Counted from the stretch's first letter, positions 7,170 through 51,880 are shown. The stretch: 64,000 bases of DNA from Candidatus Moraniibacteriota bacterium (GCA_052035095.1 JBPOHW010000004.1:23527-87526), one strand, 5' to 3'. Numbers and translations: made by a program. The notes: generated by a model from the sequence alone, not told the origin.

Positions 7170-8797
7170 AATTCTCCGGAAAACAATTCTTCGGATTCCA
7201 ATGGTCGATTTCGCGCGAACGGATTGATGGCGTTCGAGCTTTTTTTGAGCGGCACGGGACGGCGATTGTTATGAGCGTTCTCTCGGCGGTTTCCGTGTGG
7301 GCGTTTTTGCACTATTACTCGAACGGTTTGGGACTTGCTTATAACGACGCGCGGTCGCATCTCGATATCGGGCGGCGCGTGGTCGAGGGACTTCGACCCG
7401 GATTTGCGCAGTTGGGGAGTGTGTGGTTGCCTTTGACGCACCTCTTGATGACGCTCACGATCTGGAATGATTTTATGTGGCATTCGGGACTCGCGGGGGC
7501 GCTCTGGTCTATGGTCGCGTTTGTCGGGACCGGCGTTCTCATCTTTCTTTTTTTGCGCGAGCTTGGCGTGGGACTTTTGGGGCGATTCGTCGGCGTCGCT
7601 CTCTTTGCAACGAACCTCAACATTCTCTATCTTCAGTCAACCGCGATGACAGAGCTCGTGCTCTTGGGAACGATGACCGCCGCCGTCTATTTCCTGCTTC
7701 TCTGGTATACGCGGAAGAAGCTCCCGTTTTTGCTCCTCTCGGCTCTCTTCGTGATGTTCTCGACACTCGTTCGATATGACGGGTGGTTTCTCCTGTTCTT
7801 TCTCTCGATGATGATTGTCGTCTCGGTGTGGAAGTCCGGAGGGTACGTGAAGTCCGAGGGGACATTTGTGCTCTTTGCGACACTTGGCGGATTCGGGGTT
7901 TTTCTGTGGCTTCTGTGGAATCTTCTTATTTTCGGTGATCCGCTTTTCTTCGCCTTCGGTCCCTACTCGGCGCATACGCAACAACTGGATCTCGCGTCGG
8001 CGGGCGTCCTTCCGACCAAGGGCGATTGGTTGCTCTCGGCAAAGATGTATTTCTACGCGCTCGCGTACAATACAAACGCCTTCGCGCTCTTCTTGGGCGT
8101 GATCGGGTCGGCGCTTCTTTTCTTTGATCGACGTATCGCGCCTCGGGCGCGGTTTGCGACACTCGCGTTGTTCGCGCCGCTTTTCTTCAATATCTTGGCA
8201 CTCTATCTCGGACATTCGGTTCTCTTTATCCAGGGGCTCTCGGGAGATACGTGGTTCAATGTGCGCTATGGCATTATGATGATGCCGTCGGTCGCCATCT
8301 TTGTCGGGTATCTCGTTCATCGGGCGGCGGGACTTCGTCCCGTGCTCGTCGGGCTTTTGCTCTTTGTGCTCTTTTTCCAATTCTCAAGTCACGACGCGGT
8401 GACGATTGACGACGGACGCGTGGGATCGAGTCAGAAAAACGTGACGGAAGTTGCCGGATGGCTCGCGAAAAACGCGGGTCCGCGCGAGGGCTTCATCCTC
8501 ATCTCCGCCGCGTCGCATGACTCTATCATTTTCTCTTCGGGACTTCCGATGAGTCGATTCATCCACGAAGGAACGGGACCCTACTACGCGAGCGCGATTG
8601 AGAACCCCGATCGGTGGGCGCGCTGGATCGTCGTTCGGACAAACTCGGACAGTGACTCGACGTGGCGACTTCTCAAAGATAGTTTCGGATTTCTCGACCG
8701 CTACACCAAGGTGGACTCGTATCCCTTCGCGGACGTGTACGAGTTGAAACCCGAGTATTTCGGCGGACTTATCACGGAGCCGGTGAGTGGGTGGTGA
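7166..8797 (+). CDS. Polytopic integral membrane protein, putative GT-C-type glycosyltransferase (paralogous architecture to 5586..7169)
   Basis: Multi-TM protein with an N-terminal loop motif (YNDARSHLDIGRRVVEG) reminiscent of ArnT/PMT-type GT-C enzymes. Overlaps the upstream gene by 4 nt. Confidence 0.45.
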   Translation: MKFSGKQFFGFQWSISRERIDGVRAFFERHGTAIVMSVLSAVSVWAFLHYYSNGLGLAYNDARSHLDIGRRVVEGLRPGFAQLGSVWLPLTHLLMTLTIWNDFMWHSGLAGALWSMVAFVGTGVLIFLFLRELGVGLLGRFVGVALFATNLNILYLQSTAMTELVLLGTMTAAVYFLLLWYTRKKLPFLLLSALFVMFSTLVRYDGWFLLFFLSMMIVVSVWKSGGYVKSEGTFVLFATLGGFGVFLWLLWNLLIFGDPLFFAFGPYSAHTQQLDLASAGVLPTKGDWLLSAKMYFYALAYNTNAFALFLGVIGSALLFFDRRIAPRARFATLALFAPLFFNILALYLGHSVLFIQGLSGDTWFNVRYGIMMMPSVAIFVGYLVHRAAGLRPVLVGLLLFVLFFQFSSHDAVTIDDGRVGSSQKNVTEVAGWLAKNAGPREGFILISAASHDSIIFSSGLPMSRFIHEGTGPYYASAIENPDRWARWIVVRTNSDSDSTWRLLKDSFGFLDRYTKVDSYPFADVYELKPEYFGGLITEPVSGW

Positions 8798-8844
8798 ATT
8801 TTTGATATTATACCAGCTTATTTTTAATCTCTGCTATCTTGTGA

Positions 8845-8939
8845 GTTGCCGAAACTGCAAAAAATATTTTTTCTCACATGCTCCTCGTTGGGCTCGGAGC
8901 AAGCTTTCGAAAAATTATTTTTTGCAGTTTCGGCGTGCA
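8845..8939 (+). repeat. Intergenic long-hairpin repeat element, copy 1 of 4 (GTTGCC-stem-loop-stem-GGCGTGCA)
   Basis: A ~25-bp stem (gccgaaactgcaaaaaatatttttt / aaaattattttttgcagtttcggc) with the conserved flanks GTTGCC...GGCGTGCA shared by the elements at 17482, 18542 and 21008. Located directly after a + strand gene stop. Confidence 0.8.
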
Positions 8940-9017
8940 CGGTAGAAGTCTTTAGAGTAATTTAGTATCATTCGAAAAACTTTTTGTTATACGACTGCTC
9001 CGTGATATTGTAGATTC

Positions 9018-10292
9018 ATGAAGTGGATATTTTTTGGTTTTGGTGTTTTTGCGGTGCTTGGCGCGGGAGGGATGTTGCTTCTCGGAGTGCTTTCATCCGG
9101 AAGCGGGAAGCTTATGGTGTACCCCAAGCCGGAGGCGAGCTTTTGGGCGTTTCGGTCGATTGATACGATGAAACACTCGCGGGATTTGGCGCGGGAGAAG
9201 CTTCATGACGCGTCGTATGACGCAGTGATTGAGCGAGAGGTGAAGGCTATCGCCGAGACGGGCGCTTCGCACATCGCGATTGCGACGCCGTATGATGAGG
9301 AATTTATTCCGTATCTTTCGCGGTGGGTTGAGGCGGCGAGGCGACACGATTTGCGCGTTTGGTTTCGCGGAAACTTCTCGGGATGGGAAGAGTGGTTCGG
9401 GTATTCGCGTATTTCACGCGAGGAACATCTTCAAAAAATGAAATCTTTTCTTCTGAAACACCCGGATCTTTTCCAAGACGGCGATGCGTTTTCGTCGTGT
9501 CCGGAATGTGAAAACGGCGGTCCGGGGGATCCGCGGCAGACGGGTGACGTGTCGGGATATCGAAACTTTTTGGTCGAAGAGTACGAGGCGGCGAACGAGT
9601 CGTTCGAGAAAACAGGGAAGCGGGTTATGACACATTTCTTTTCGATGAACGGCGATGTGGCGCGGCTCGTGATGGACAAAGACACGACGAAAAAGTTGGG
9701 CGGCGCGGTGACGGTGGACCACTATGTAAAGACACCCGAGACGCTCGCGCGCGACGCGGAGGATTTCATCGGACGAAGCGGTGGGAAGCTCGTTCTCGGG
9801 GAATTTGGCGCGCCGATCCCGGATATTCACGGGGCGATGAGCGAGGGTGAACAGGCAGAGTGGCTCGAAGATTCGCTCTACCGGCTCGCGCGCGTTCCGG
9901 ATGTGTTTGGCGTGAGCTACTGGACGCACGCGGGGAGTTCGACCGCGCTCTGGGATGAGAAAGGAAATGCTCGGGAGGCGGTCGGAATTCTTTCCAAATT
10001 CTATCGTCCCAAAGTGTTCTACGGCGTGGTGTCGGATGAATTGGGGACGCCGATTCGAGACGCGCGCGTGTCAATCGGCGGTGATGAGACCGAGACAAAT
10101 AACGAGGGCTACTTTGAGCTTCGCGCGCCGATCGGCGCCGGTGAAAAAACAATGATTTCCGTTTTCGCCCCGGGATTTCTCTCGGCCGACAATTCGGGCG
10201 AGGAATCACAAATGCGAATCATTCTCCGACGCGAACACGAAACAAAATGGTTCAAATTACAAAAATGGTTGAAAGAACGAGCGGGGAATTGA
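9018..10292 (+). CDS. Secreted/membrane-anchored putative glycoside hydrolase (TIM-barrel-like) with C-terminal carboxypeptidase-regulatory-like beta-sandwich domain
   Basis: N-terminal signal/TM segment. Central region carries glycosyl-hydrolase-like motifs (HIAIATPYDEEF..., EFGAP, SYWTH). The C-terminus resembles a CarbopepD_reg domain (GVVSDELGTPIRDARVSIGG...EGYFEL). The exact GH family cannot be assigned. Confidence 0.4.
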   Translation: MKWIFFGFGVFAVLGAGGMLLLGVLSSGSGKLMVYPKPEASFWAFRSIDTMKHSRDLAREKLHDASYDAVIEREVKAIAETGASHIAIATPYDEEFIPYLSRWVEAARRHDLRVWFRGNFSGWEEWFGYSRISREEHLQKMKSFLLKHPDLFQDGDAFSSCPECENGGPGDPRQTGDVSGYRNFLVEEYEAANESFEKTGKRVMTHFFSMNGDVARLVMDKDTTKKLGGAVTVDHYVKTPETLARDAEDFIGRSGGKLVLGEFGAPIPDIHGAMSEGEQAEWLEDSLYRLARVPDVFGVSYWTHAGSSTALWDEKGNAREAVGILSKFYRPKVFYGVVSDELGTPIRDARVSIGGDETETNNEGYFELRAPIGAGEKTMISVFAPGFLSADNSGEESQMRIILRREHETKWFKLQKWLKERAGN

Positions 10293-10308
10293 GAATGGGG
10301 AATGGAGA

Positions 10309-10977
10309 ATGAAGAACAATGAATGGAACACTATGAATCAAAAAGCTCGAGCGCGGGAAATTTTGGGGCGGATTAAAAAAATGTATTCCGAGCCGGGGCC
10401 GTTTGTCGCGTGGTCGAATCCTTTGGAATTGGTCGCGGGGACGGTACTCTCGGCGCAGTGTACGGACGAGCGGGTGAATCGCGTGACGGAGAAGTTATTC
10501 AAGAAATATCGGACGGCGCAAGATTACGCGAACGCGAAATCGGAAGAACTCGAGCGCGATATTTATCAAACGGGATTCTACAAATCAAAAGCGAAGTATC
10601 TCAAGGGGATCGGAAAGCTCTTGGTTGAAAAGTTTGACGGGGAGGTGCCGAATGATTTCGACGCGCTCCTCACGTTTCCCGGCGTCGCGAGGAAAACCGC
10701 GCATATCGTGATGGCGAAGGCGTTTGGGAGATTTACGGGCGTCGCGGTCGATACGCACGTCTTGCGCCTCGCGCCGCGCATGGGACTCACGAAAGAAAAA
10801 GAACAGGAAAAAATCGCGCGCGATTTGGAACAACTCTTTCCTCGCGAAGAATATCTTCACGTGAACGAATACCTCATCACGCACGGTCGCGCGGTCTGTG
10901 TCCCGCGGAAGCCGAAATGCGGGGAATGTGAATTGGTGGAGCTCTGCTTGTTTGGAAGGAAATTATTAGGTCGATAA
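10309..10977 (+). CDS. nth: Endonuclease III (DNA-(apurinic or apyrimidinic site) lyase)
   Basis: HhH-GPD motif with catalytic Lys (LLTFPGVARKTAHIVM), VDTHV Asp motif, and a C-terminal [4Fe-4S] C-x6-C-x2-C-x5-C cluster loop. Confidence 0.85.
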   Translation: MKNNEWNTMNQKARAREILGRIKKMYSEPGPFVAWSNPLELVAGTVLSAQCTDERVNRVTEKLFKKYRTAQDYANAKSEELERDIYQTGFYKSKAKYLKGIGKLLVEKFDGEVPNDFDALLTFPGVARKTAHIVMAKAFGRFTGVAVDTHVLRLAPRMGLTKEKEQEKIARDLEQLFPREEYLHVNEYLITHGRAVCVPRKPKCGECELVELCLFGRKLLGR

Positions 10978-11161
10978 AACGTGAGCGTCATAGAGAGGAA
11001 GAATGAGGAATAAAGAATTAAGAATAAGGCAAAAATCGGAAACGAAAACGATTTTGTTTGAGGCTTAATTCCTGATTCCTTATTCCTGATTCCTTTTCAT
11101 CAATTCGCCGTCACGATGAAGATTCGGGCGGTGCGGAGTTTTTACAATCCATTGGGACTTT

Positions 11162-14100
11162 TTGGTTTTTTGGTGTATACTTTTGGAAGGCGAGAATTTT
11201 TTGGACGCTCGTGTGGGAGGGTATATATCAAAACACAATTCATTTCGTTCGCGACGGGCTCGCCGATATTTTTCGTGGCGGTCTGTTCGTCATTTGAAAC
11301 CGAAATATGTCGGATTTTCTTTGGTGTGCGCGCTTCTCGTTTCCGGCGCGTATTTGTTGTTCTCGGGGCAGATCCGGAGCATTTTTGCCGATGGAGAAAT
11401 TACCGAAACCTGGAACTTCGCGACGCCTGCGGAATACACGGCGTCTTCGGGGGTGACGGTTGACGGATCGAATACCGAGTCGCGGCTTTCGATAATGAAT
11501 TACGCAAGCGATACCGACACGATGGCGCTCTATCATTTCGATGAATCAAGCGGCGATACGGCGAGCGACGCTTCTTCCTATACCAATAACGCGTCAATCG
11601 CGACGGGAACGGGGAGCTTCGGCTCGGGGAGCCTCAATAATGCATTGACACTGAATGGCGCGACGACATTTGTCTCGGCGCCGGATATCGATGCAACGTC
11701 TCTGACGGGCAATTTTACGATAGAAGCGTGGACGAAATTTCCTTCGGGATTCTCGGATACGACGAGCCGGGTGCGAGAGGGGATACTCGATAAAGGCGCG
11801 TACAAGCTCTACTATGACAATGAAACCGGGAAGGTCGTCTTTGAACTCGAGCCGAATACGGTGGCGGCGGTGAACTGGACGCAGGTTGGCGGTCCGGATC
11901 TTCTCAATCAAAATGGCGCATCGCAAAATGTTGAGTTTAACCAAAGCTGGGACGCGAACAGCAAAAACTTCGTGTGGCGACAGGTGGTTGTCGGGAGTGA
12001 TATTTATGTGGCTCTGGGAAGTATAACGACGGGAGTGACCGTGACGGGTGACGCGGAAGTATGGAAGTGTACGGACTGCGCGACGAGCCCGGTGTGGTCC
12101 AAAATCGGTGGTGACGGGATCAATAGCAGTTGGGAAGACGGCACCTACGAAGATGCCTCGTCGCTCGTCTCGGATGGAACCAATCTCTATGCCGGTCTCG
12201 GGAATCGCTCCGCCGAGGCGGAAGTGTGGCGGTTCAAAAGCGGGTCGTGGTCCAAGATAGGTGGCGACGGCACGAACTCGAGTTGGCTTACAACGACACC
12301 GGGTCCCTATGAGCGCGTGACGAGCATGGTGGCGGATGGAACGACGGTGTACGCGGGGCTTGGAACGACGGCGGGCGATGCCGAAGTCTGGAAATGTACA
12401 AGTTGCGATGGCGGGAGCCCGTCGTGGTCCAAGGTGGGCGGTGATGGAACGGGATCGGGCGGGCAGAGCTGGACGACATCGACCTATGAAGAGGTAGCGG
12501 CGCTTGCGATTGTGAATGGGACGACGCTTGCGGTGGGACTTGGGACGGGCGGTGGCGACGGCGAACTTTGGACCTGCGCAACCTCGAGTTGTACCGTGAC
12601 GTCGGGCTGGACGAAGCGTGGTGGCGACGCGTCCGGTTCGGGCGGGCAGTCATGGACCAATGCCTATGATGAGGTTCGCGCGATTACCTCGAACGGAACC
12701 GTGATATATGTCGGTATCGGCGTTTCAACAACGGAAGCGGAAGTGTGGCGGTGTGATATTGGCGGGACATGCACGACGACCTCGGGATGGACTAAGGTAG
12801 GCGGTGACGGAACGGGATCGAGTTGGAATACGAATTATGAGCGTGTCTGGTCGCTCCTTGCGAACGGAACCACGGTCTATGCCGGTATCGGCGATGGTGC
12901 GGGCGATGCCGAAGTCTGGAAATGTACAAGTTGCGATGGCGGGAGTCCGTCGTGGTCGCAGATTGGCGGCGATGGAAATGGAAATCCGCCGCAGTCATGG
13001 GGAAATCAGACCGGAGCGTCGTTTTATTACGCCTCAAGTCTCGCTCTTATCGGAACGAATATCTTCATCGGGGCGTCGAGTGCGGCCGGGACGAGCGGCG
13101 CCGAAGTGTGGCGGTGCGATACGAGTGGGACCTGCAGTAATACCGCTGGGTGGACGCGGATTGCCGGGCAATACCTCAACAAAAGTTGGGGCGCGTTCAA
13201 TCTCAATAGCATCGAATCCATGGCGGTTTCAGATGGGAAACTTTATGCGGGTATGGGGTATGATACGGGAGCGGCGACATCAAACGGCAATGCGATGGTG
13301 TGGGAATTCGATGGGACGAATTGGACGATGATCGGCGGGCAAGGGATAAATAGCTCGTGGACGTATGGACATCCGTCGATTTCGACCTCTACCTATCGAG
13401 CGGTAACGTCGATGACGGGGTATAAAGGAGGTCTCTTCGTCGGTTTGGGCGGATCAACCAATGGCGATGCGGAAGTGTGGCGTTGGAACGGGACGGTCTG
13501 GTCCAAGGTGGGCGGGGATAGCGATGCGTCGGGCGACAATTCGTGGGCGGCAGGGACGAAGCGGTCGGTGCCCGCAATGATCACGATCGGCGATAAGCTC
13601 TATATCGGACTCCAGGGAACGGCGGCGGGCGATGGCGAGCTTTGGTCGTGCGATCTTTCGGGCACCTGTGATACGACGAATGGCTGGACATTTTTGGGTG
13701 GCGACGCGACTGGTGCCGGCGGGCAGTCATGGGCGACGACGGGGCACGCGGCAGTGTGGAGCATGACGTCTCGTGGGACGAATATTTATGTCGGGTTGGG
13801 ATCGAGTACGAATTATGCCGATGTGTGGACCGCCGATACGGCGACGTGTACGCGAACGACCGGTTGGACAAAAATCGGCGGTGGCGGAACGAATTCAAGT
13901 TGGAATACGAGTTACGAAGAGGTGACGGCGCTCACCTGGTATCGCAATGAACTTTATGCGGGACTTGGCGCGAGCGCGGGCGACGCGGAGGTGTGGAAGT
14001 GGAATGGGGCGAGCTGGGGTGGGACGGCAATTGCCGGCGATGGGTTGAATGATAGCTGGGAAGATCTTCTGTATGAACGAGTCCGTTCGCTCAAGAGTTT

Positions 14101-17100
14101 TAACGGTAATCTTATTGTCGGGCTGGGCGATAGCGCCGGTGAGGGCGAGGTGTGGCAGTATGACACGAGTACCTGGACCAAAATCGGCGGTGATGGCGCT
14201 CGTTCCGGATGGACGAATGTGATTGAACGGCTCGGGGCGCTCGCGGCGTATCGCGGGAAGCTCTATGCCGGCGTCGGACTTACGGCAAATAGCGACGCGA
14301 CCGTGTGGGCGTATGGAAACAATGAAATCGTCGAGTCGTCGGCGACGAGTCAGGATTCCGACTGGCATCATATCGCCGTGACCTCGAACGGCTCGACGCT
14401 TCGAATGTATATTGACGGGACCGAAGTGGATAGCGAGAGTCTCTCCGGGTCTCTCGCTAACACGGCGCACCCCTTGGTTCTTGGAGGACTTGCGGGCGGC
14501 GGGCAATATACCGGCGCGGCGCCGGGAATATTAAACGGGAGTATCGATGAAATTCGTATCAGTGATACGGTGCGCGCGTCGTTTCAGACAACGCCGTATT
14601 CGAGTAGCTACGAAACCGTCGAGCTTTCAGATCCGGTACATACCTCCGGGGTTGAGAAGTGGGATTCGTTTGCGGCGAACGAAGACGCGCCGGGGGATAT
14701 CACCTATCGTCTCTCGGATAATGGGGGCTCAACCTGGAAATATTGGAACAGTTCCGCGTGGGTAGCTTCGTCGGGCTTCGGGGAAGCGAATCCGGTCGCG
14801 ACGGTGAATACGAATATCCCGACCTTTCCGGTCTCAACGGGTGGACTGGTGTGGCAGGCAATTCTCCTTGGAAATGGCGATGAGGTCGTGAAGCTTAACT
14901 CGGTGGATCTCGTCGCGACCGAGGATCTTGTGGCGCCCGCATGGCCCGGGAGCCCGACACTCATTGCGAAGAATCAGTCCGGCGGGACGACCGATCTCAC
15001 GACGGCGACGTGGTACACCTATTCGGCGCCCTACTTCGAGTGGTCGGCGGCGACGGATACGGACGGATCGGGAGTGATCGGATACTATGTATGCTTCAGT
15101 TCTCCGGCGTGCTCCGATCCGGTGACCGATGGCGATTTCCAAGTGGGGAATAGCTACACGGCGACGACCGACACGAGTGGCGCGGCGCTGGTCTCGGGAC
15201 AGAAGTACACGCTCTCGGTCAAAGCGAAAGACAACGCGCAGAACACGAGTGTGCTTTTTACCATCCCCTTTGTCTACTGGCTCGATTCGACGGTGCCCAC
15301 TGATCCCGTGGGTGGTGTCACGGCGGCGCCCGCGGTGTATTCTCCCGACGACGACTTTTCTTTTCTCTGGAATGCGGCGGTTGACGGGAATGGCAATCCG
15401 GCGACCAACTCGATGATTGCCGGCTATCAGTATCAGATTGCCGATACCCCGGTCGTCGACGGGTGGTCGGCGACCATCACCGAAACGCAGATTGATATTG
15501 TTGACGCCGCATATCGAACCGGCGAGAACTCTTTCTATCTCCGGACGATTGACAATGCCGGCAATGTCACGGACGGTACGGAGCGAGTCAGGTTTTATTA
15601 TGCCGGTTCGGGACCGACGGAGCCGCGGAATTTGCAGGCGATACCGGAGAGTAATACCGCAAACTCCTTCGCTTTCAGTTGGGATCCGCCGTCTTCTTTT
15701 TCGGGTGATCCGGAGGATCTCACGTATTGCTATACCGTGAACACCGTTCCGACCGAAGATGCCTGCACCTTTACGACCGCCGGTATCGAATCGATCGCCG
15801 CTTCCGCCTTTGCGACCCAGCATGACAATCTTTTCTACGTGGTCGCGAAGAATCCGGAGGATTTGGGCGGGACCATCAACTATGGCGCGTACACGAGTGT
15901 TCCATTTACCGCCAATACGAGCGCACCTGGCATTCCGCTCAATATCGATATCGCCGATGTGTCGGTCAAGAATACCGAATCGTGGAAACTCGCGATCTCA
16001 TGGGAAGAGCCGTCCGATATCGGCTCCGGCGTCGACTCGTATCAGATCTATCACGCCGAGAGCGAGGGCGGGACCTATTCCAAAGTCGCGTCGACGAGCG
16101 GTATCGCGTTTGTCGACACGGGACTTGAGCAGATCACGCACTACTATAAGGTGCGCGCCTGCGATGATGTCAATAACTGCGGTGCCTACAGCGAAGTGGT
16201 ATCGCTCTATCCGACGGGGAAGTACACGGAGCCGGCGACGATTGGCTCGGGTCCCACGGTTTCTCTCATTACCACCAAGAGTGCGACGATCAGTTGGTCT
16301 ACGAATCGCACGTCCGACAGTAAGGTACAGTACGGGAAGAGTTCCGGAACCTATTATTCGGAAGAGCCGAGCAATTCGGAACAGGTGACGGATCACGTGA
16401 TCAAACTCTCAAACCTTTCGCCCGGCACGACCTATCACTATCGCGCGCGTTGGACGGATGAGGATGGGAATACGGGTGTCTCGGGCGAGAAATCGTTTAA
16501 GACTGATCCCGCGCCGACCGTTGTCGACCCCAAGGCGAAGAGTGTGGGGCTTTCGAGCGCCATTCTCGAGTTTACCGCGAAGGGCGCGAGCAAAGTGAAA
16601 ATTTATTACGGCCTCACGGAAGCCTTCGGACTTGTGAAAGAAGTCGCGACCTCCGAAGCCGAGACGACCTATACGACGAGTATTGAGGACCTGCTCGACG
16701 GGACGAAATATTTCTACAAAATCAACACCGTGGACAGCGAGGCGGAAGAATATGAGGGGAATACACTTTCTTTCGAGACGCTCCCGCGTCCCAAAATCGA
16801 AGAGGTGAAGATACAACAGGTGAAGGGAACGGCGCAAACGGTACTCCTCATTTCGTGGAAAACCAATACCGAGACGTCGTCCATCGTCTCCTATGTTCCC
16901 GATGGGAATACCGGCGAGGCGAAAGACGAAGTGGACGTGAAGATGGTGAAGGGCGAGCACAAGATGTTGATCAAAAATCTCTTGCCGCAGACGGGATATA
17001 CGTTGACCGTGAAGGGTCGGGATAATTTCGGGAATGAAGCGAGTTCCGAGCCGCTACGCTTTACCACGGCGACCGATACGCGCGCGCCGCAAATTATCGA

Positions 17101-17455
17101 CGCCAATGTCGAAGGACTTATCGTAAAAACGAATGAAGGAAGCGAGGGCGAGCCGGAGGCACAGCTCATTGTGACGTGGACGACGGATGAGTCGGCGACG
17201 GCGCAGGTCGAGTATGGCGAGGGAACCGGCTCTTCCTATCCGCAGAAGACGCAGGAAGACGCCGCGCTCGTATCGAATCATACGGTCGTCATTTCCAAAC
17301 TCTCGCCGTCAAAAGTTTATCATCTCCGTATTCTCTCCAAGGACAAGGCGGGCAATGTGGGGCAGTCCATCGATATCGTTTCCATTACGCCCAAAGCGAC
17401 CGAAAACGCGCTCGACATCGTATTCTCAAGTCTCAAATCCATTTTTGGAAAGTAG
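11162..17455 (+). CDS. Giant (~2100 aa) membrane-anchored cell-surface protein: N-terminal signal-anchor, ~15 tandem ~50-aa propeller-like repeats, LamG/concanavalin-like domain, multiple FN3-like domains
   Basis: Single uninterrupted ORF. The track start at 11162 is a TTG; the in-frame TTG at 11294 gives a classic KPK-hydrophobic signal-anchor and is more plausible. Repeats match W-x-K-[IV]-G-G-D-G...Y-E-x-V...G-T-x-[LV]-Y-[AV]-G-[LI]-G...G-D-A-E-V-W (Kelch/propeller-like). LamG-like segment: DWHHIAVTSNGSTLRMYIDGTEVDS. The C-terminal half is FN3-like beta-sandwiches (e.g. ATISWSTNRTSDSKVQYGKSSG...TTYHYRARWTDEDGN). Confidence 0.7.
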   Translation: MVFWCILLEGENFLDARVGGYISKHNSFRSRRARRYFSWRSVRHLKPKYVGFSLVCALLVSGAYLLFSGQIRSIFADGEITETWNFATPAEYTASSGVTVDGSNTESRLSIMNYASDTDTMALYHFDESSGDTASDASSYTNNASIATGTGSFGSGSLNNALTLNGATTFVSAPDIDATSLTGNFTIEAWTKFPSGFSDTTSRVREGILDKGAYKLYYDNETGKVVFELEPNTVAAVNWTQVGGPDLLNQNGASQNVEFNQSWDANSKNFVWRQVVVGSDIYVALGSITTGVTVTGDAEVWKCTDCATSPVWSKIGGDGINSSWEDGTYEDASSLVSDGTNLYAGLGNRSAEAEVWRFKSGSWSKIGGDGTNSSWLTTTPGPYERVTSMVADGTTVYAGLGTTAGDAEVWKCTSCDGGSPSWSKVGGDGTGSGGQSWTTSTYEEVAALAIVNGTTLAVGLGTGGGDGELWTCATSSCTVTSGWTKRGGDASGSGGQSWTNAYDEVRAITSNGTVIYVGIGVSTTEAEVWRCDIGGTCTTTSGWTKVGGDGTGSSWNTNYERVWSLLANGTTVYAGIGDGAGDAEVWKCTSCDGGSPSWSQIGGDGNGNPPQSWGNQTGASFYYASSLALIGTNIFIGASSAAGTSGAEVWRCDTSGTCSNTAGWTRIAGQYLNKSWGAFNLNSIESMAVSDGKLYAGMGYDTGAATSNGNAMVWEFDGTNWTMIGGQGINSSWTYGHPSISTSTYRAVTSMTGYKGGLFVGLGGSTNGDAEVWRWNGTVWSKVGGDSDASGDNSWAAGTKRSVPAMITIGDKLYIGLQGTAAGDGELWSCDLSGTCDTTNGWTFLGGDATGAGGQSWATTGHAAVWSMTSRGTNIYVGLGSSTNYADVWTADTATCTRTTGWTKIGGGGTNSSWNTSYEEVTALTWYRNELYAGLGASAGDAEVWKWNGASWGGTAIAGDGLNDSWEDLLYERVRSLKSFNGNLIVGLGDSAGEGEVWQYDTSTWTKIGGDGARSGWTNVIERLGALAAYRGKLYAGVGLTANSDATVWAYGNNEIVESSATSQDSDWHHIAVTSNGSTLRMYIDGTEVDSESLSGSLANTAHPLVLGGLAGGGQYTGAAPGILNGSIDEIRISDTVRASFQTTPYSSSYETVELSDPVHTSGVEKWDSFAANEDAPGDITYRLSDNGGSTWKYWNSSAWVASSGFGEANPVATVNTNIPTFPVSTGGLVWQAILLGNGDEVVKLNSVDLVATEDLVAPAWPGSPTLIAKNQSGGTTDLTTATWYTYSAPYFEWSAATDTDGSGVIGYYVCFSSPACSDPVTDGDFQVGNSYTATTDTSGAALVSGQKYTLSVKAKDNAQNTSVLFTIPFVYWLDSTVPTDPVGGVTAAPAVYSPDDDFSFLWNAAVDGNGNPATNSMIAGYQYQIADTPVVDGWSATITETQIDIVDAAYRTGENSFYLRTIDNAGNVTDGTERVRFYYAGSGPTEPRNLQAIPESNTANSFAFSWDPPSSFSGDPEDLTYCYTVNTVPTEDACTFTTAGIESIAASAFATQHDNLFYVVAKNPEDLGGTINYGAYTSVPFTANTSAPGIPLNIDIADVSVKNTESWKLAISWEEPSDIGSGVDSYQIYHAESEGGTYSKVASTSGIAFVDTGLEQITHYYKVRACDDVNNCGAYSEVVSLYPTGKYTEPATIGSGPTVSLITTKSATISWSTNRTSDSKVQYGKSSGTYYSEEPSNSEQVTDHVIKLSNLSPGTTYHYRARWTDEDGNTGVSGEKSFKTDPAPTVVDPKAKSVGLSSAILEFTAKGASKVKIYYGLTEAFGLVKEVATSEAETTYTTSIEDLLDGTKYFYKINTVDSEAEEYEGNTLSFETLPRPKIEEVKIQQVKGTAQTVLLISWKTNTETSSIVSYVPDGNTGEAKDEVDVKMVKGEHKMLIKNLLPQTGYTLTVKGRDNFGNEASSEPLRFTTATDTRAPQIIDANVEGLIVKTNEGSEGEPEAQLIVTWTTDESATAQVEYGEGTGSSYPQKTQEDAALVSNHTVVISKLSPSKVYHLRILSKDKAGNVGQSIDIVSITPKATENALDIVFSSLKSIFGK

Positions 17456-17481
17456 TGTTTGTCGGTTCCAGCCTCGTGAGC

Positions 17482-17565
17482 GTTGCCTCGACCGAGAAAA
17501 AGAATTTTTCTCATATACGATTACGTAAGATTTCGAAAGATTCTTTTTCTCGGTCTCGGCGTGCA
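17482..17565 (+). repeat. Intergenic long-hairpin repeat element, copy 2 of 4
   Basis: Stem: gcctcgaccgagaaaaagaat / attctttttctcggtctcggc. Loop tcatatacgattacgtaagatttcgaaa, identical to copy 3. Ends with GGCGTGCA followed by a TAAAAAAT -10-like box. Confidence 0.8.
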
Positions 17566-17603
17566 TAAAAAATGTTTTAGGATATTTTAAGTAGTGAGGG
17601 TCT

Positions 17604-18506
17604 ATGTCTGAAATCATCACTCCTCTGTCAAATACGCCCGCTCCCAATCCGCGTACGCCGGCATATGACGCGCCGGGAAACGCGGGAGAGGCGATTATCA
17701 CCGTGACCGATGTGTACAAATCGTTCCATCTCGGGACGCAGATCATCGATGTCTTGAAGGGCATTACGTTTACCGTGGAGCGGGCGGATTTCTTGATCGT
17801 CTTCGGCCCTTCGGGGTGCGGGAAGTCAACGCTGCTTCACATTATTCTTGGACTCGAAGGTCCTTCGAAAGGCACGATGACGTTTCTTGGGAAAAATCTT
17901 TATGAACCGGGCATTCCCGAGGACTATCGGTCCGAATTTCGGAAAAAGCATATCGGTATGGTGTACCAGCAGTCGAATTGGGTGAAGTCGCTCAGTGTGC
18001 TCGAGAATATCGCGTTTCCGCTCTACCTCTTGGGATGGGATCGACTGCGCGCTTTTGAGCGAGCGTACAAAGCGCTCGACGAGGTGGAGCTCTCGGCGTG
18101 GGCGGATTATCACCCGATGGATCTTTCGAGCGGACAGCAACAGCGTATCGCGGTCGCGCGAGCGCTCATTACCGATCCGGAAGTGATTATCGCCGACGAG
18201 CCGACCGGCAACCTCGATTATGACGCCGGCGAGATGCTCCTCAAGCTTTTGCGCTCATTGAATGAACGCGGGAAAACCCTTATTATGGTGACACATGACC
18301 TTGAATATTTGGCGTACGCGAAGACGGCGCTCTCGATGCGCGACGGACATCTCCTTGGCATTTATCGCGGCGAAGAAAAGGCGAATTTGGAAAAAGAATT
18401 GAAATACAAGCGCGGCGTGAGCATTCAGCAGGGAGCGGGTATCGAGGAGGATCCAAACGCGGCACCGGTCGTGTTTTCCTACGGCGCCGCAAGCGCCGCG
18501 AAGTGA
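17604..18506 (+). CDS. ABC transporter ATP-binding protein (MacB/LolD/FtsE-like)
   Basis: Walker A GPSGCGKST, ABC signature LSSGQQQRIAVARAL, Walker B IIADEPTGNLD. Shine-Dalgarno GTGAGGG lies upstream. Confidence 0.85.
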   Translation: MSEIITPLSNTPAPNPRTPAYDAPGNAGEAIITVTDVYKSFHLGTQIIDVLKGITFTVERADFLIVFGPSGCGKSTLLHIILGLEGPSKGTMTFLGKNLYEPGIPEDYRSEFRKKHIGMVYQQSNWVKSLSVLENIAFPLYLLGWDRLRAFERAYKALDEVELSAWADYHPMDLSSGQQQRIAVARALITDPEVIIADEPTGNLDYDAGEMLLKLLRSLNERGKTLIMVTHDLEYLAYAKTALSMRDGHLLGIYRGEEKANLEKELKYKRGVSIQQGAGIEEDPNAAPVVFSYGAASAAK

Positions 18507-18541
18507 AAAATTCCCGTCGTCAGGTACCAGTTTCTCTGAAG

Positions 18542-18625
18542 GTTGCCGAGACTGCAAAAAAGAATTTTTCTCATATACGATTACGTAAGATTTCGAAAAA
18601 TTCTTTTTTGCAGTCTCGGCGTGCA
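18542..18625 (+). repeat. Intergenic long-hairpin repeat element, copy 3 of 4
   Basis: Perfect 25-bp stem (ccgagactgcaaaaaagaatttttc / gaaaaattcttttttgcagtctcgg) with the same loop as copy 2. Confidence 0.85.
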
Positions 18626-18660
18626 AGGTTGTAAGTCGTCAGTCGTCTGTTGCTTTCTCT

Positions 18661-20958
18661 ATGCGATTTCTTTTCTTCGGAAAAAAGAAAAAAACGGAAG
18701 ACGTGCAGGATGCCGCGGCGCATGGTGTTGCGGTTATGGAGGCGTCGAATGTTCCCGCGAAAGCGTTTTTCCTCGTTCGCATGTGGCGGGGGATTATCGG
18801 TATCCCGAGATTTTTCAAAGAAACGTTTCTCCGCCTCTTTCTTTTCGTAGTTCTTCTCCTTTTCTACATTATCGTTCGCGGGTCGTTTTCGCTCTATTGT
18901 CGGGTGCTCAAAATTTTTCGCTCAAAGAGTGAGCAGTCAAGCGAGGTGATGTTTGCCAAGCTCTCGAGTAGGATCGAGCGGTTGTTTCGTATCGAACGGC
19001 GCGAGTCTATTGATCGTATCAGCCTGATCGGTATCGCGATTCGGAATATGAAGGTAAAGAAAACGCGAACGGCGATTACGATCGGCGGTATGGCGATGGG
19101 GATCGCGTCCATTGTGTTTCTCGTGTCGCTCGGGTATGGCGTCCAACGCCTCGTCATTTCGCAGGTGGCGCGACTCGAAGAAATGAAGCAAGTAGATGTG
19201 TCGCCGCAGGCGGGCGGCAAGGTAAAAATCAACGATGAGACACTTGCGACAATGAAAGAAATTCCGAATGTCGCCTCGGTCGCGCCACAGGTCGCGGTTG
19301 TCGGAAAAGTGAATTATCAGGGGTCGGTTTCGGATATGGCGGTCTATGCGGTGACGTCCGACTACCTCCGTCAGTCGGCGATACAACCGTCATCGGGAAC
19401 CATATTCGAGAGCAATGATCTCTCGGCGAGTCTTCCCGACCGAGAAACGGTTGCGGGCGTGAGCGATGTCGTCGAACGCGCGCCACTCGGGTTTGGGGAC
19501 ATACTCGAGACGGTGTCGGTGCGTTCGCTTTCGGAGTCGTGGGTGCGCTTGCGGGAATCGCCGGATCCGAAGTCGAGACTCCTTGGTCTTGTTCCCGTTA
19601 CGGAAGTGGGATTTCCGGGGGCGCTGGTCGTCGGGAAATCCTATGGGAGCACGGTTCCCGATACGGGAGAAGCGTACGCGGATGATCGTGGCGGGACTTT
19701 CGGGAAGTGGGTATCGGTCGAGGCGGCGGTGTGGGAGAAGTCGTCCGAGTGTTTTCCTTCAAATGGTTGTAAGAATGGATTTTCCCCACTCAAACGGCAA
19801 AGTGGCGACCCGAAAGTCGAGCAGGGATATTTCGCGCTCGTAGATGAGGATATTACCGTGTATCCGGTCGCGCAAGAGCAGTTTGCTCAGGATATCGAAG
19901 GCGCGGAAGCGATTGAGGCGGGAACGGTTCTCGGGGAGAGTACGGAAGTGGCGGTGGCTGATACAGTGACGCCGACTGATCCGACTGTGGCGGTCGCGGA
20001 GACTTCTTCGGAAACATCCGAATCGAGCGCCACTCCGGAAGCGCCTTCGGAGGCGGGTGGAATACAGGTTTCCGGCTCTGATGGCGATTGGGTGGAAATT
20101 GATCTGGGTGACAACGCGGACGGGAACGACGAGGTGGAGCGGGTGGCGCTCGGAGCGGCGGCGAAGAAAGAAGCGGTCGTCAATCGCGCGATGCTTCGGG
20201 TCTTGGGGCTTCCGGAGGGGGAGGCGCTCGGGAAGAAATTCAACGTGTCATTTGTGGTGACGGGGAGTCTTTTGGGCGAGGGAAAGGCGAAGAAGCTCGA
20301 GTCGACGGATGCCGAGTATACGATACTCGGTGTCATACCCGAAGACAAAACACCTATTTTTTATGTGCCGTTTCTCGATGTTCGGACGCTCGGCGTGACG
20401 AATTACTCGCAGGTCAAAGTTACTACGGCGACACAGGAAGCGCTTCCCAATGTTCGTCGGCAGATCGAGGGGATGGGGTATGTGACGACGTCCGTTTCGG
20501 ACACGGTCGAACAGATCAATAATTTTTTCGGGACGGCGCGCATCGTCTTGGCGCTCCTCGGTATGGCGGCCTTGGGTGTCGCGGCGCTCGGGATGTTTAA
20601 TACGCTCACCGTGTCACTCCTTGAGCGGACGCGCGAAGTGGGACTTATGAAAGCAATGGGGATGAAGGCGTCCGAAGTGCAGGAACTTTTCTTGACCGAG
20701 TCTATGGTGATGGCGTTTTTTGGAGGCATTTTCGGTTTGTTGATCGGGTTTCTCTCGGGGAAAGGCTTGGGACTCATTATTTCCACGGTTGCGTTTTTGC
20801 GCGAGAAGCATATGGGCGTTCTCGATGTGTCCTATATTCCCACGATGTTCATCGTCACCATCCTCCTTTTTTCGCTCGCGGTCGGTGTGTTGACCGGACT
20901 TTATCCGGCGCGCCGCGCGACGAAAATTTCCGCCCTGAACGCTCTCCGATACGAGTAG
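18661..20958 (+). CDS. ABC transporter permease, FtsX/MacB family, with an unusually large and low-complexity extracytoplasmic insert
   Basis: C-terminal 4-TM FtsX domain (…LLGMAALGVAALGMFNTLTVSLLERTREVGLMKAMGM…). Typical MacB N-terminus at MFAKLSS...KVKKTRTAITIGGMAMGIASIV, so the true start may be the ATG at 18949. The ~450-aa periplasmic region includes a Thr/Ser/Glu/Pro-rich linker. Confidence 0.75.
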   Translation: MRFLFFGKKKKTEDVQDAAAHGVAVMEASNVPAKAFFLVRMWRGIIGIPRFFKETFLRLFLFVVLLLFYIIVRGSFSLYCRVLKIFRSKSEQSSEVMFAKLSSRIERLFRIERRESIDRISLIGIAIRNMKVKKTRTAITIGGMAMGIASIVFLVSLGYGVQRLVISQVARLEEMKQVDVSPQAGGKVKINDETLATMKEIPNVASVAPQVAVVGKVNYQGSVSDMAVYAVTSDYLRQSAIQPSSGTIFESNDLSASLPDRETVAGVSDVVERAPLGFGDILETVSVRSLSESWVRLRESPDPKSRLLGLVPVTEVGFPGALVVGKSYGSTVPDTGEAYADDRGGTFGKWVSVEAAVWEKSSECFPSNGCKNGFSPLKRQSGDPKVEQGYFALVDEDITVYPVAQEQFAQDIEGAEAIEAGTVLGESTEVAVADTVTPTDPTVAVAETSSETSESSATPEAPSEAGGIQVSGSDGDWVEIDLGDNADGNDEVERVALGAAAKKEAVVNRAMLRVLGLPEGEALGKKFNVSFVVTGSLLGEGKAKKLESTDAEYTILGVIPEDKTPIFYVPFLDVRTLGVTNYSQVKVTTATQEALPNVRRQIEGMGYVTTSVSDTVEQINNFFGTARIVLALLGMAALGVAALGMFNTLTVSLLERTREVGLMKAMGMKASEVQELFLTESMVMAFFGGIFGLLIGFLSGKGLGLIISTVAFLREKHMGVLDVSYIPTMFIVTILLFSLAVGVLTGLYPARRATKISALNALRYE

Positions 20959-21007
20959 TTTCACGAGTAGTTTCAATTTATTTTTCTTAAGTTCTCCTCC
21001 CTTGAAA

Positions 21008-21101
21008 GTTGCCTCGACCAAGAAAAAGAATTTTTCTCACACACTCCTCCCGGGCTCGGAGCGAAGTTTCGAAAAATTCTTTTTCTTGGTCTCGGCGTGC
21101 A
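21008..21101 (+). repeat. Intergenic long-hairpin repeat element, copy 4 of 4
   Basis: Stem: cgaccaagaaaaagaatttttc / gaaaaattctttttcttggtctcg. Loop is similar to copy 1 (cactcctcccgggctcggagcg). Followed immediately by a TGATAGAAT extended -10-like box. Confidence 0.8.
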
Positions 21102-21167
21102 TGATAGAATCATCGGGGTAATTTCGTATCATTCTCCATTCTCCATTCTCCATTCTACATTCTCCTT

Positions 21168-22715
21168 ATGACTCTTCGAAAAAAAATATTTTTTATCGTC
21201 GCGTACGCGGTGGAAGGAACGATGATTGTGCTCTACGCGGGGATCAGCTTCTTCTTTCTTGGGAATCTTATCGATAACGAGCAAGAAGATGTGCGGCGAA
21301 ATGTCGAGTGGGTCGGGCGAGCGATACGACAGGATATCGCGGATATGAATCGTCAGATTCTCGATTGGTCGCATTGGGATGATATGTACGCGTTTGCCGA
21401 CGCGCCGACGGAATCGTTTATCGAATCAAACTTGCCGGTTGAATCACTTGATATTCTCGATCTGAGTTTTATCGTGATTGCCGATCGGGACGGGAAGATA
21501 CTTGCCGGGCAGGGCATGGATCGGAAAACTCGCGAGAAGCTCGCTGTGCCGAGTGAGGTTGAAAAGCAGGTCGCGCTGGGAAATATTCTTTCGACATTCG
21601 CGTCGCCATCCGATGGGCACTCGGGTATCATTTTGTTTGCTTCGGGACCCGCGCTTATCGCGACGAGACCGATCGTGACCTCGCTCGGTGAGGGACCGCC
21701 TCGAGGGGCGATTGCTTTTGTGCGAATGCTTGATGACGGATATCGTCGAGGGCTTTCGGATTTTCTCGGGTATCCGCTTGCGTTTTCGTTTGTCGGTTCC
21801 AATAATTTTTCGTCCGACTTTTCTGAGGCGGCGAAAGAACTGCGGTCTCCCGAGGATGTAAAAACAAGCGTGGGTGAAACTTCGATTTCTGGGTACGGAT
21901 TTCTTCCGGATGTGTTCGGGAGTCCGCTTCTTTTTTACCGATTGGAGAAGGCGATTCCGACATCGTTTGGAACGTCGAAATTGATGGCGGCGCTTTCACT
22001 TATCGGTTTCCTCCTTGTCGCGACGCTCCTCATTTTCTTTCTTTTACACTGGACAGTGCTATCACGCGTCAACTTCTTGAGTCGCTCGCTCGCCCATGCC
22101 AGGCGGAAGGGATTATCCAAAGAAGGTATTGATTTCTCCGGAAGCGACGAGATTGCCGACTTGGCGAAAGAGATAAACGCGCTTCTCTCGGCGTTTCTCT
22201 CGGTTCGCGAGCGGGGCGATGTCGCCGAACGGCGATTTGAAACGATTGCCGATACGATTCCGGCGTTTCTCTGGATGATTGGAACGAATCAACAGTGTCT
22301 CTACGTGAATAAACAGGCATCCTCATGTATTGGGGCGATTGCGGCGGAGGAGTTTATGGAAGCGTGGCGGAAACATATTCATCCGGATGATGTCGCGGGG
22401 TGCCTTGCTCGTTGCGCGAGCGCCTTTGAAAGGCGGAAACCACTCACGATGGAATATCGGGTGGTGTGTTCGGGCGGGGGATACCGGTGGGTGCTTGATA
22501 GTAGCGTCCCGTTTTCGAGTTCGGTTGGGGTTTTTCTCGGATTTCTCCATGTGGCGGTTGATATTACCGATCGAAAGGACTCCGAAGAAAAAGAGGTTTC
22601 GAAGCGCAAAGAGGCGGAGCGCTTGAACGCGATTATGGTGAGTCGCGAGCTTCGTATGATTGAACTCAAGAAGGAAATCAAGGAATTGCGCGGAAAGAAA
22701 GAATCTCATTCCTAA
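21168..22715 (+). CDS. Membrane sensor protein: TM – periplasmic sensor domain – TM – PAS domain – C-terminal coiled coil, with no kinase domain
   Basis: Two TM segments flank a ~240-aa extracytoplasmic domain. The cytoplasmic PAS fold is ...IADTIPAFLWMIGTNQQCLYVNK...MEYRVVCSGGGYRWVLDSSVPF. It ends in a charged coiled coil and has no HisKA/HATPase motifs. Confidence 0.6.
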   Translation: MTLRKKIFFIVAYAVEGTMIVLYAGISFFFLGNLIDNEQEDVRRNVEWVGRAIRQDIADMNRQILDWSHWDDMYAFADAPTESFIESNLPVESLDILDLSFIVIADRDGKILAGQGMDRKTREKLAVPSEVEKQVALGNILSTFASPSDGHSGIILFASGPALIATRPIVTSLGEGPPRGAIAFVRMLDDGYRRGLSDFLGYPLAFSFVGSNNFSSDFSEAAKELRSPEDVKTSVGETSISGYGFLPDVFGSPLLFYRLEKAIPTSFGTSKLMAALSLIGFLLVATLLIFFLLHWTVLSRVNFLSRSLAHARRKGLSKEGIDFSGSDEIADLAKEINALLSAFLSVRERGDVAERRFETIADTIPAFLWMIGTNQQCLYVNKQASSCIGAIAAEEFMEAWRKHIHPDDVAGCLARCASAFERRKPLTMEYRVVCSGGGYRWVLDSSVPFSSSVGVFLGFLHVAVDITDRKDSEEKEVSKRKEAERLNAIMVSRELRMIELKKEIKELRGKKESHS

Positions 22716-26933: not shown

Positions 26934-26980
26934 GGGGCGGATGTGGAAATAGATTTCCCTCCGCCCCTTGAATTTTTTTT
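26934..26980 (+). terminator. Rho-independent terminator
   Basis: Stem ggggcgg/ccgcccc plus an inner ggaaat/atttcc stem, followed by TTGAATTTTTTTT. Confidence 0.6.
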
Positions 26981-51698: not shown

Positions 51699-51880
51699 AG
51701 AGGGTTATAGCGAGAGTGATATTTCTTTTGCTTCTCTCTATCGGAGCAACCTTTTGTCCCGCCAAGGTGGGGTTGCGGTCTCGGTGTGCATTATAGAGAC
51801 CTTTAGCGTAATTTGGTGTTACCAAAAAAATTCCGATATGCGCAGTTGCGCGTATCAGCAGAGTTTTTTTGAAGGGATTT

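Follow-up and report, generated by a model that had tools for sequence, protein, structure and literature searches.

Long hairpins between genes of an uncultured Moranbacteria-like CPR bacterium: probable cores of a non-autonomous MITE

Four long hairpins located between genes in a 64,000-nt stretch of DNA (the window, from whose first letter all window coordinates are counted) are best explained as the cores of a non-coding, non-autonomous MITE of about 150–157 bp, which inserted repeatedly between genes; we put the probability of this reading at about 0.8. The host is an uncultured Moranbacteria-like CPR bacterium, which is an unusual host for an element of a familiar kind. Within one conserved operon, the MITE has recently inserted at three or more junctions. 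The genomes of CPR/Patescibacteria are about 1 Mb in size and tightly packed, and our literature search found no account of either MITEs or intergenic palindromic repeats from these bacteria. The family comprised five copies in the window and about 20 more on other contigs of related genomes. Its mobility is indicated by presence or absence at collinear sites, by the T-N-A duplication, and by copies that are more alike across species than the genes are.

Through a pattern search of the window with GTTGCC-N60-90-GGCGTGCA, we found exact matches at 8845-8939 (copy c1), 17482-17565 (c2), 18542-18625 (c3) and 21008-21101 (c4), all on the + strand, in agreement with the four same-orientation hairpins of the initial annotation. 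Only 0.01 matches were expected, and four or more were reached in none of 100 shuffles. Every copy folded into a long hairpin (−39.5 to −45.2 kcal/mol, z −5.1 to −9.7) with arms of 26 nt that are 92–100% complementary. The two loop variants described earlier were also confirmed, with lengths of ~35 nt (long) and ~24 nt (short). In copy c3 the inverted repeat of 26 nt is perfect (100% complementary), and the folded RNA has 29 uninterrupted pairs. The compensatory differences between stems were borne out by 18 distinct copies, taken from the window and from relatives: 98.3% of pair cells were paired and 10 stem pairs were changed on both sides, a number equalled in 0 of 500 shuffles, and slid-register controls gave 40–56% pairing.

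Such covariation is what a structured non-coding RNA, or a cis-acting RNA module or protein-binding module under selection for its fold, would show, with the similarity of the flanks being secondary. The loop has conserved, asymmetric edges (TCAYAYAC … RAAGNTTTC), the apical mini-hairpin is retained in both loop variants with differing sequence, two conserved U·G pairs are possible in the + strand RNA only, three one-sided stem changes preserve pairing, and most copies are co-oriented with genes. We nevertheless consider this reading very unlikely. Rfam gave no match at gathering thresholds in the window and none at E<=0.1 in three loci, leaving only sub-threshold miRNA-precursor look-alikes; the whole unit folds end to end from either strand, and the opposite strand folds equally well; and the genes neighbouring the copies have no common function. 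The loop can also be deleted, expanded or inverted: it was lost in copy L037b, it contained an extra hairpin in L014b, and it was inverted relative to the flanks in L035a. Above all, the target-site duplications and insertion polymorphism make mobility primary. As a MITE, the element would owe part of its lasting arm complementarity to exchange between the arms, by intramolecular recombination or template switching; the same process would also flip the loop, of which L035a is the one example seen. By recombining, copies probably exchange modules of stem, loop and collar; L034b is chimeric, joining two stem subtypes, and L035b and L050b carry the c2/c3 loop within different outer arms. The conserved asymmetric loop and the two U·G pairs could still reflect a sequence-specific function, as an RNA or in protein binding, that lies outside the MITE explanation.

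The repeat unit continues past the hairpin, for ~35 nt on its left side and ~30 nt on its right. Full-length copies were 151–157 nt, and 138–190 nt when variants were counted. Taken as a whole, the unit forms an imperfect palindrome, bounded by TACCA(A/G)…TGGTA, whose left and right halves pair end to end; from the outside inwards it is composed of the termini, a collar (GTTGCC / GGCGTGCA), the inner inverted repeat and a modular asymmetric loop. The outer part of the inverted repeats is imperfect, and the inner 26 bp are A/T-rich and nearly perfect. The unit thus has the size (<~300 bp), the terminal inverted repeats and the non-coding nature of a MITE. The only ORFs across the elements are on the minus strand and, as had been suggested, are spurious, overlapping real genes.

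Copy c1 is full-length (157 nt, 8811..8967, + strand, nhmmer E=4.8e-47), extends from TACCAGCTTA to AATTTAGTA between the trinucleotides TTA and TCA, and has a long-loop hairpin; the whole unit folds end to end at −52.8 kcal/mol (z −6.3). It is located between a 543-aa gene (7166-8797) and a 424-aa gene (9018-10292). Copy c2 (17472..17588, +, E=7.8e-21), with a short loop, the CCGAG stem subtype and a diverged or shortened outer left flank, lies between a 2097-aa LamG/fn3 gene (11162-17455) and an ABC ATPase gene (17604-18506). This ATPase gene is followed by c3 (18525..18642, +), which has a short loop and truncated outer flanks, and then by a MacB/FtsX permease gene (18661-20958). Copy c4 (20979..21128, +, E=3.8e-47), with a long loop and the CCAAG stem subtype, stands between the permease gene and a CHASE4-PAS sensor gene (21168-22715); its right flank TGATAGAAT…GGGGTAATTTCGTA is intact and its left end degenerate. 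Clear termini or duplications were absent in c2 and c3. A decayed fifth copy was detected at 51715..51818 (+, left boundary approximate, E=2.2e-06, profile positions 116-169), in which part of the loop CTCTCTATCGGAGCAA, a right arm that has diverged GCGGTCTCGGTGTGCA and the right flank TTATAGAGACCTTTAGCGTAATTTGGTG are left.

The comparison of related genomes revealed both filled and empty sites. The loci L001 and L041 are 97–99% identical; in L001 a TAA triplet stands on each side of a 152-nt element (2904-3055), and L041, where the site is empty, contains TAA once (GGGAAG-TAA-CATTC). This is the only clean filled/empty pair among near-identical genomes, for which an assembler dropping the palindrome could in principle be an alternative. 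Perfect 3-nt direct repeats flanked seven of the 13 full-length copies (TAA three times, TGA three times and TTA once), the middle base of the flanking triplets agreed in 11 of the 13, and all were T-N-A-like, giving a 3-bp TNA target-site duplication; such duplications are a feature of MITEs. Neither L041 nor L001 has an element at the sites of c1 and c4. The same operon, with the genes for the giant protein, the ABC ATPase and the permease, was also found in L042, L045, L046 and L047/48, where its genes are separated by spacers of 6–54 nt, or joined by an ATGA overlap, with no element. In the sister strain L026 (97.8% identical), the c3 site is occupied by a different, long-loop copy, and the spacer is 212 nt versus 127 nt in the window. 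Filled and empty states were seen at four spacers, and one site was replaced in the sister strain, so that the dispersed copies show the insertion polymorphism between related genomes that characterizes MITEs. Copy c4 shared 98% identity over 109 nt with L037a, at an unrelated locus of another species, and the c3 core shared 100% over 56 nt with L035b; across species, copies were 92–98% identical versus 72–80% for syntenic coding DNA. Turnover between 98%-identical strains together with near-identity across species means ongoing transposon activity and intergenic remodelling in a supposedly streamlined lineage.

Considering the flanking triplets, we infer that the unit is moved in trans by a DDE transposase making 3-bp staggered cuts at TNA, which may be encoded elsewhere in the genome or have been lost. 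Neither the window nor ~350 kb of related DNA contained a transposase, a longer element with the same termini or solo terminal matches flanking an ORF, and the scanned ORFs included no transposase domains and no multi-copy ORFs. The IS1031 group of the IS5 family (DDE) is reported to have a 5′-TNA-3′ target preference and an exclusive 3-bp direct repeat (PMC12016507), which match the flanks of the element; the link consists of this target-site signature only. The published terminal repeat of the group, GAACCTGTCTAGTATCT, is unlike TACCAAC…, and the element here encodes no transposase.

The initial annotation had alternatively compared the hairpins with a genome-specific repeat of the REP/BIME type. 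This holds as far as they are dispersed palindromic intergenic repeats, and like REP/BIME and REPIN sequences they are enriched after genes with an orientation bias; the terminal inverted repeats, 3-bp duplications and filled/empty sites are MITE hallmarks instead. Spreading of REP/REPIN-type units as single-stranded hairpins by a RAYT (Y1/HUH, IS200/IS605-like) transposase would agree with long, palindromic, intergenic hairpins, with their asymmetric flanks, and with a biased orientation along a strand whose GC skew is uniformly positive. However, the 3-bp repeats vary by copy and the empty site has a single TAA, which points to staggered-cut DDE-type insertion; to our knowledge, HUH enzymes do not make such direct repeats, and we know of no target-site duplication for REPs. 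REPs are units of 20–40 nt with a conserved head that are linked to Y1 transposases (PMC2817692). The unit here is ~150 nt, occurs as single copies rather than in the alternating arrays of REP/BIME, and lacks the 5′ GTAG-type head, and no Y1 transposase gene was present in the checked ORFs. Membership in REP/BIME was rejected, and we regard RAYT-driven spreading as highly improbable.

All window copies are intergenic: c1–c4 start 27–50 nt past the stop codon of a + strand gene and end 36–79 nt ahead of the next + strand start codon. The expectation that copies always lie downstream of genes in one orientation was true for these four and failed for others: among the copies of the window and its relatives, about 15 were co-oriented with the flanking genes, three were opposite and two lay between divergent genes, with L014a and L040 antisense to both flanking genes and L038 and L033 in divergent positions. 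For a MITE, the location directly after genes follows from the compact genome, in which tolerant TNA sites are few and lie in short spacers, including the TAA and TGA stop codons; insertion at a stop codon would produce a duplication that regenerates the stop. The gene-strand bias itself is not predicted by transposition alone, and suggests either that selection acts on the RNA or that orientation is tied to the direction of replication.

The same positions had been taken as the sign of a combined terminator and promoter, that is, of dedicated regulatory cassettes evolved in place, in which the hairpin ends the upstream transcription and a box after GGCGTGCA or at the terminus starts the downstream one. 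Besides the regular placement of the window copies on the coding strand, this reading could draw on the spacers of 6–54 nt or overlapping genes in relatives, which imply that the downstream gene must be expressed across or from the element. The boxes named after GGCGTGCA are present exactly as listed, TAGAAG/TAGAAT being part of the conserved right flank of the unit, and TGATAGAAT of c4 is a good extended −10 match. At most element ends (8/13 right ends) we also found an outward, extended −10-like TGnTAnnA, formed by the terminus plus the duplicated TNA at a location different from the box proposed earlier. However, the genes concerned also work in relatives that lack the element, the sister strain has another variant at the c3 site, the antisense copies and the divergent ones (with no upstream gene to terminate) do not fit a cassette, the TAGAAG box is missing from c2 and c3, and target-site duplications indicate insertion rather than evolution in place. 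The suggested −35 TTGCAG in the right arm did not hold up: it lies only 15 nt from TAGAAG, and is confined to one stem subtype, being missing from the CTTGG and CTCGG subtypes. A sigma-70 consensus scan, which needs 16–18 nt between −35 and −10, made no call in any right arm or flank. As noted before, no copy has a U-tract; an intrinsic terminator has a G+C-rich stem ahead of such a tract, the A/T-rich stem here is followed by GGCGTGCA and mixed sequence, and this identity was rejected. The terminator scan called no whole hairpin, and its one weak call was on the loop sub-hairpin of c4. A dedicated cassette is therefore not supported and appears quite unlikely; the MITE may still affect neighbouring genes as a side effect, through a promoter or RNA processing.

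One hairpin after each of several same-strand genes also resembles an integron-like cassette array with the hairpins as attC sites. attC sites have RYYYAAC/GTTRRRY core sites and extrahelical bases. The hairpins here contain no such core sites, their ends being GTTGCC and GGCGTGCA, and their stems are perfect without extrahelical bases; no integrase was found in the scanned ORFs, and the genes that would be the cassettes form a conserved operon, found in synteny also in relatives without the hairpins. This reading is effectively refuted by the synteny and the target-site duplications.

Among known MITEs, the element invites comparison with the Correia elements (CREE/NEMIS) of Neisseria, which are likewise non-coding palindromic MITEs of ~100–160 bp whose core is enclosed by inverted repeats of ~26 bp; they too are scattered over intergenic and intercistronic spacers, with a presence that varies by strain. 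The target-site duplication of CREE is TA. There is no sequence similarity between the two, and the element here differs in its 3-bp TNA duplication, its CPR host and the lack of an identified IHF site; membership in CREE was rejected considering the termini TACCAAC… and the empty site GGGAAG-TAA-CATTC, which is incompatible with a TA-duplication model. CREE can generate a promoter at one or both ends and can undergo RNase III binding or cleavage (PMC2649163, PMC2229807). Judged from its sequence, the element here appears to have the anatomy for both effects, with an outward TGnTAnnA and a 26–29-bp duplex. When transcribed within an operon, this RNA duplex would be a likely RNase III substrate or 3′-end stabiliser, and the relative L045 encodes RNase III. 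The terminus-plus-duplication junction TGGTA|TNA could act as an outward extended −10-like motif, and copies could uncouple the expression of once tightly linked genes, as Correia elements do. We might further speculate that in this reduced CPR genome the MITE was co-opted as a portable expression module: inserted at TNA sites, stop codons included, it would split operon genes that ancestrally overlapped or were tightly coupled, provide an outward extended −10 promoter from each end and a 26–29-bp RNase III or stability hairpin, and act as a small reversible switch through loop inversion by arm–arm recombination. We consider this unlikely; if it were true, the stem covariation would be kept by RNA selection and the gene-strand bias would reflect that function.

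ERIC/IRU, RUP and comparable MITE-like repeats of bacteria are also imperfect palindromes of ~100–150 bp; they lie in intergenic regions that are transcribed and fold into long hairpins as RNA (PMC2229807, PMC3049150, PMC10969869), and their copy number and presence vary by strain. They differ from the family here in sequence, termini and duplication, and the family here is distinguished by an unusually perfect, co-varying inner stem and by exchangeable loop and collar modules. For annotation, the hairpins should be masked together with their flanks as mobile repeats, and no terminator, promoter or small ORF should be recorded there. Should the elements alter transcript processing or initiation like Correia elements, they would be a source of regulatory strain variation in as-yet-uncultured organisms.

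A likeness to the Rickettsia palindromic elements (RPE) was found in L042, where a Wzy_C-like ORF contains a copy of the hairpin, apparently in frame. This in-frame case was seen once, and the locus ends before the ORF does; the window copies differ in being all intergenic. Another palindromic element is present in the window, in frame and at the corresponding position of the protein.

The pattern GTTGCC-N60-90-GGCGTGCA matched four times in the window, all on the + strand and where the initial annotation had placed its hairpins, with 0.01 matches expected by chance, and the sequences of the four copies (c1, 8811–8967; c2, 17472–17588; c3, 18525–18642; c4, 20979–21128) agreed with its description. 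The hairpin arms are 26 nt long with 92–100% complementarity, and the two loop variants described were recovered: c1 and c4 have the longer one (~35 nt), c2 and c3 the shorter (~24 nt). RNA folding predicted a long hairpin in every copy (−39.5 to −45.2 kcal/mol; z −5.1 to −9.7 vs shuffles). The genes flanking the copies, all on the + strand, encode a 543-aa protein, a 424-aa protein, an endonuclease III-like protein, a 2097-aa LamG/fn3 surface protein, an ABC ATPase, a MacB/FtsX permease, a CHASE4-PAS sensor and a histidine kinase. Relaxed searches of the window revealed no further intact copy, and a profile search added one decayed copy at ~51715–51818. No tRNA genes were found in the window, and Rfam gave no meaningful match for the element at gathering or E-value thresholds. 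A perfect 12-nt tandem duplication (ACGAGTAGTTTC twice) at 20951–20975 spans the TAG stop of the permease gene and directly abuts the degenerate left end of c4; it could have been left behind by an insertion or repair event.

In the aligned copies, conservation continues beyond the hairpin on both sides. The left flank has a consensus of ~35 nt (TACCAAcGTAyyCTAATCTCTGCTACCTTGTGA) and the right flank one of ~30 nt (TGATAGAAGaCTTCAGgGTAATTTGGTA); together they form an imperfect inverted repeat, and the whole unit of 151–157 nt folds over its full length, whichever strand is used. Therefore the TAGAAT/TAGAAG box, proposed initially as a −10-like box behind the hairpin, is present but belongs to the right flank of the repeat, and it has no homologue in the boxes that follow c2 and c3.

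Related copies (L-numbers denote loci from related genomes and metagenome contigs, with letters for separate copies on one locus) came from two sources. A scan of a genome collection with one genome per species, using the pattern TTTCGAAA-N17-TCGGCGTGCA, returned 25 loci, of which 22 were chance matches without a hairpin, and true copies existed only in the MAG GCA_964550545.1 (CAZJZN01; L001, L014, L022 and L050), which holds the closest copies. The metagenome scan gave ten contigs with relatives, all from one sample. Viral contigs, plasmids and phages contained no match, so nothing in these collections ties the element to such replicons.

The MAG is labelled “uncultured Bdellovibrionales bacterium”, which is contradicted by its GlyRS, its ABC ATPase homologues and its operon synteny. 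Its GlyRS is 89% identical to that of the window, the nearest named homologues are in Candidatus Moraniibacteriota/Moranbacteria (GlyRS 87%, ABC ATPase 74%; one is encoded on a closed 1.09-Mb genome), and NCBI Moranbacteria MAGs share the gene order of the ABC transporter operon. The label looks wrong, or the bin mixed. Since these homologues and the synteny point to Moranbacteria, the host of the element is most likely a CPR/Patescibacteria bacterium. Literature searches found no MITE or palindromic repeat family described for CPR/Patescibacteria.

The element is a bacterial MITE, as indicated together by a filled and an empty site, a target duplication, empty orthologous spacers, turnover between strains and copies more conserved than genes. 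Locus L001 of the MAG and the metagenome contig L041 are 97–99% identical and a single indel apart: the 152-nt element stands between two TAA triplets in L001, and L041 contains one TAA. Perfect 3-nt direct repeats flanked 7 of the 13 copies with definable ends (TAA three times, TGA three times, TTA once); the middle base of the flanking triplets matched in 11 of 13, and all triplets were T-N-A-like. A TA duplication of the IS630/mariner type was rejected, as it predicts an empty site which was not observed. The reading of the hairpins as attC sites of an integron was ruled out by the end sequences, the perfect stems and the operon synteny.

Window 6935–22619 is syntenic with both L001 and L041 (74–80% identity), and neither of these has the element at the c1 or the c4 site. 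The same operon, again element-free, occurs with spacers of 6–54 nt or an ATGA overlap in four relatives that are more distant, two of them NCBI Moranbacteria MAGs. Because the orthologous spacers are empty in relatives, the ancestral state was a tight operon without the element. The colonisation of this operon, in a reduced genome, is recent. The sister strain L026, 97.8% identical to the window, shares the copies c1, c2 and c4, and at the c3 site it contains a different long-loop copy in a spacer of 212 nt vs 127 nt in the window. Copy c4 showed 98% identity over 109 nt with a copy from a different species (L037), where the locus is unrelated, and the c3 core 100% over 56 nt with L035b; orthologous coding DNA is, for comparison, 72–80% identical. 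The particulars of this MITE are its co-varying perfect inner stem, its exchangeable modules and its loop inversion.

A strict 3-bp TNA duplication is reported for the IS1031 group of the IS5 family (PMC12016507). As this matches the duplication found here, we propose that the element would be mobilised in trans by an IS1031-type DDE transposase, although the published terminal repeat of the IS1031 group is unrelated to the termini of the element. In the window and ~350 kb of related DNA, neither a gene for such a transposase nor a longer element sharing these ends was found; Pfam searches of 18 window ORFs revealed no transposase, and an all-against-all ORF comparison revealed no multi-copy gene as a candidate.

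Compensatory stem differences, noticed initially among the window copies, held over 18 distinct copies, in which 98.3% of pair cells were paired. Two-sided changes occurred in ten stem pairs, which none of 500 shuffles reached, and slid controls gave 40–56% pairing. At least five stem subtypes were found with matching arms in each (TGCAAAAAAT, CCAAGAAAAAG, CCGAGAAAAAG, TATAAAAAAT and TCGTAAAAAAT), and L050a represents a sixth. The family is mosaic in its make-up: L034b combines the left arm of one subtype with the right arm of another, L014b contains an additional hairpin within the loop, L037b lost the loop, L035b and L050b contain the short c2/c3 loop within different outer arms, and in L035a the loop is inverted with respect to the flanks. 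This flipped loop points to recombination or template switching between arms. Such exchange would also keep the arms identical, and stem covariation is therefore not clean evidence for selection on an RNA fold. The stem mismatches (three C·A and a few G·U) showed no clear strand preference, with the exception of two conserved collar U·G pairs, which are possible only in + strand RNA.

All window copies are intergenic, so that copies inside genes, named initially as an observation against the proposal, do not arise in the window; a copy within an ORF was found in one relative, L042. The suggestion that copies always follow a gene in one orientation holds as a bias and not as a law, because opposite and divergent copies exist: by a crude ORF-based context across all loci, about 15 were co-oriented with both neighbouring genes, three were opposite to the genes (L014a, L040 and L035a) and two lay between divergent genes (L038 and L033). 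The GC skew is uniformly positive across the window, and transcription and replication are therefore inseparable there as causes of the bias. In four copies (L001a, L034b, L022 and L050b) the stop codon of the preceding gene serves as the left duplication, and in L039 the upstream ORF extends into the element. As TAA and TGA are TNA sites and duplication regenerates the stop, a stop codon is one of the few sites in short spacers where insertion does no harm. Such duplications do not argue for homing to stop codons, since their frequency is about that expected from chance plus selection in spacers this short.

The initial annotation offered a terminator-plus-promoter cassette or a REP/BIME-like repeat; a genome-specific palindromic repeat remains, and a purpose-built cassette does not. 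Between 8000 and 22000, a sigma-70 consensus scan called no promoter, and a terminator scan no terminator, in any right arm or flank, nor was an intrinsic terminator called at the hairpins. The suggested TTGCAG −35 box in the right arm is 15 nt from TAGAAG and limited to one stem subtype. The terminus joined to the duplication (TGGTA followed by TNA) creates an outward TGnTAnnA similar to an extended −10 box; of 13 copies, 8 have this motif at the right end and 9 at the left. If a terminal promoter were true, transcript 5′ ends would lie ~7 nt downstream of TGGTATNA. Because the genes at the insertion sites overlap or nearly abut in relatives, transcription must cross the elements or start in them. 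The 26–29-bp perfect RNA duplex is a plausible substrate of RNase III, which a relative encodes. For Correia elements, promoter and RNase III effects have been described (PMC2649163), and only by analogy might we infer them for the present element.

A second intergenic repeat family of ~140–160 nt (32805–32967 and 40300–40441; L037, 9914–10076) has a conserved core, ACGTTCArGAAAT…GGAAATAACCTCCCAAAGAAnCTTTCG, and closing inverted repeats which are compensatory between the window copies (TTTGTATTCGGC/GCCGAATACAAA vs TTTCGTATTTGTC/GACAAATACGAAA); it showed 87% identity to the copy in another species and no Rfam match. The third element, a palindrome at 27851–28033 with 81-nt arms ending GTCATTCCCGCGAAGGCGGGAATCCAGG, lies in frame within a 540-aa Wzy_C-like (O-antigen-ligase-type) ORF at 26968–28590. 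At the matching point of the protein, behind FSRSxWMGFGIG, the orthologue in L042 contains a copy of the hairpin family (15377–15451); judged by its sequence, this copy is possibly in frame inside the gene, whose ORF runs off the locus end. Both resemble the Rickettsia palindromic elements (RPE), which likewise insert in frame.

Short tandem arrays that repeat every 7 nt (also 14/21), such as GAATGGA, CATTCTC, AGAATGA, AATTACG and GTTGnnn, occupy many intergenic spacers (10283–10316, 10999–11027, 11068–11095, 21130–21165, 40738–40759, 40969–41289, 42071–42116, 45298–45327, 47616–47674, 49967–50005, 51061–51087 and 57460–57492; 11090–11135 in L026), often directly upstream of start codons and beside hairpin elements. 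Two opposite-sense arrays form a hairpin at 10986–11108. Orthologous spacers of relatives keep the period but not the array sequence (compare L001, 6497–6545). The segment 34000–37000, which contains the gene of a 961-aa KAP-family P-loop NTPase (34139–37024), has a low GC content (36–42% vs ~52% elsewhere) and may be a horizontally acquired island.
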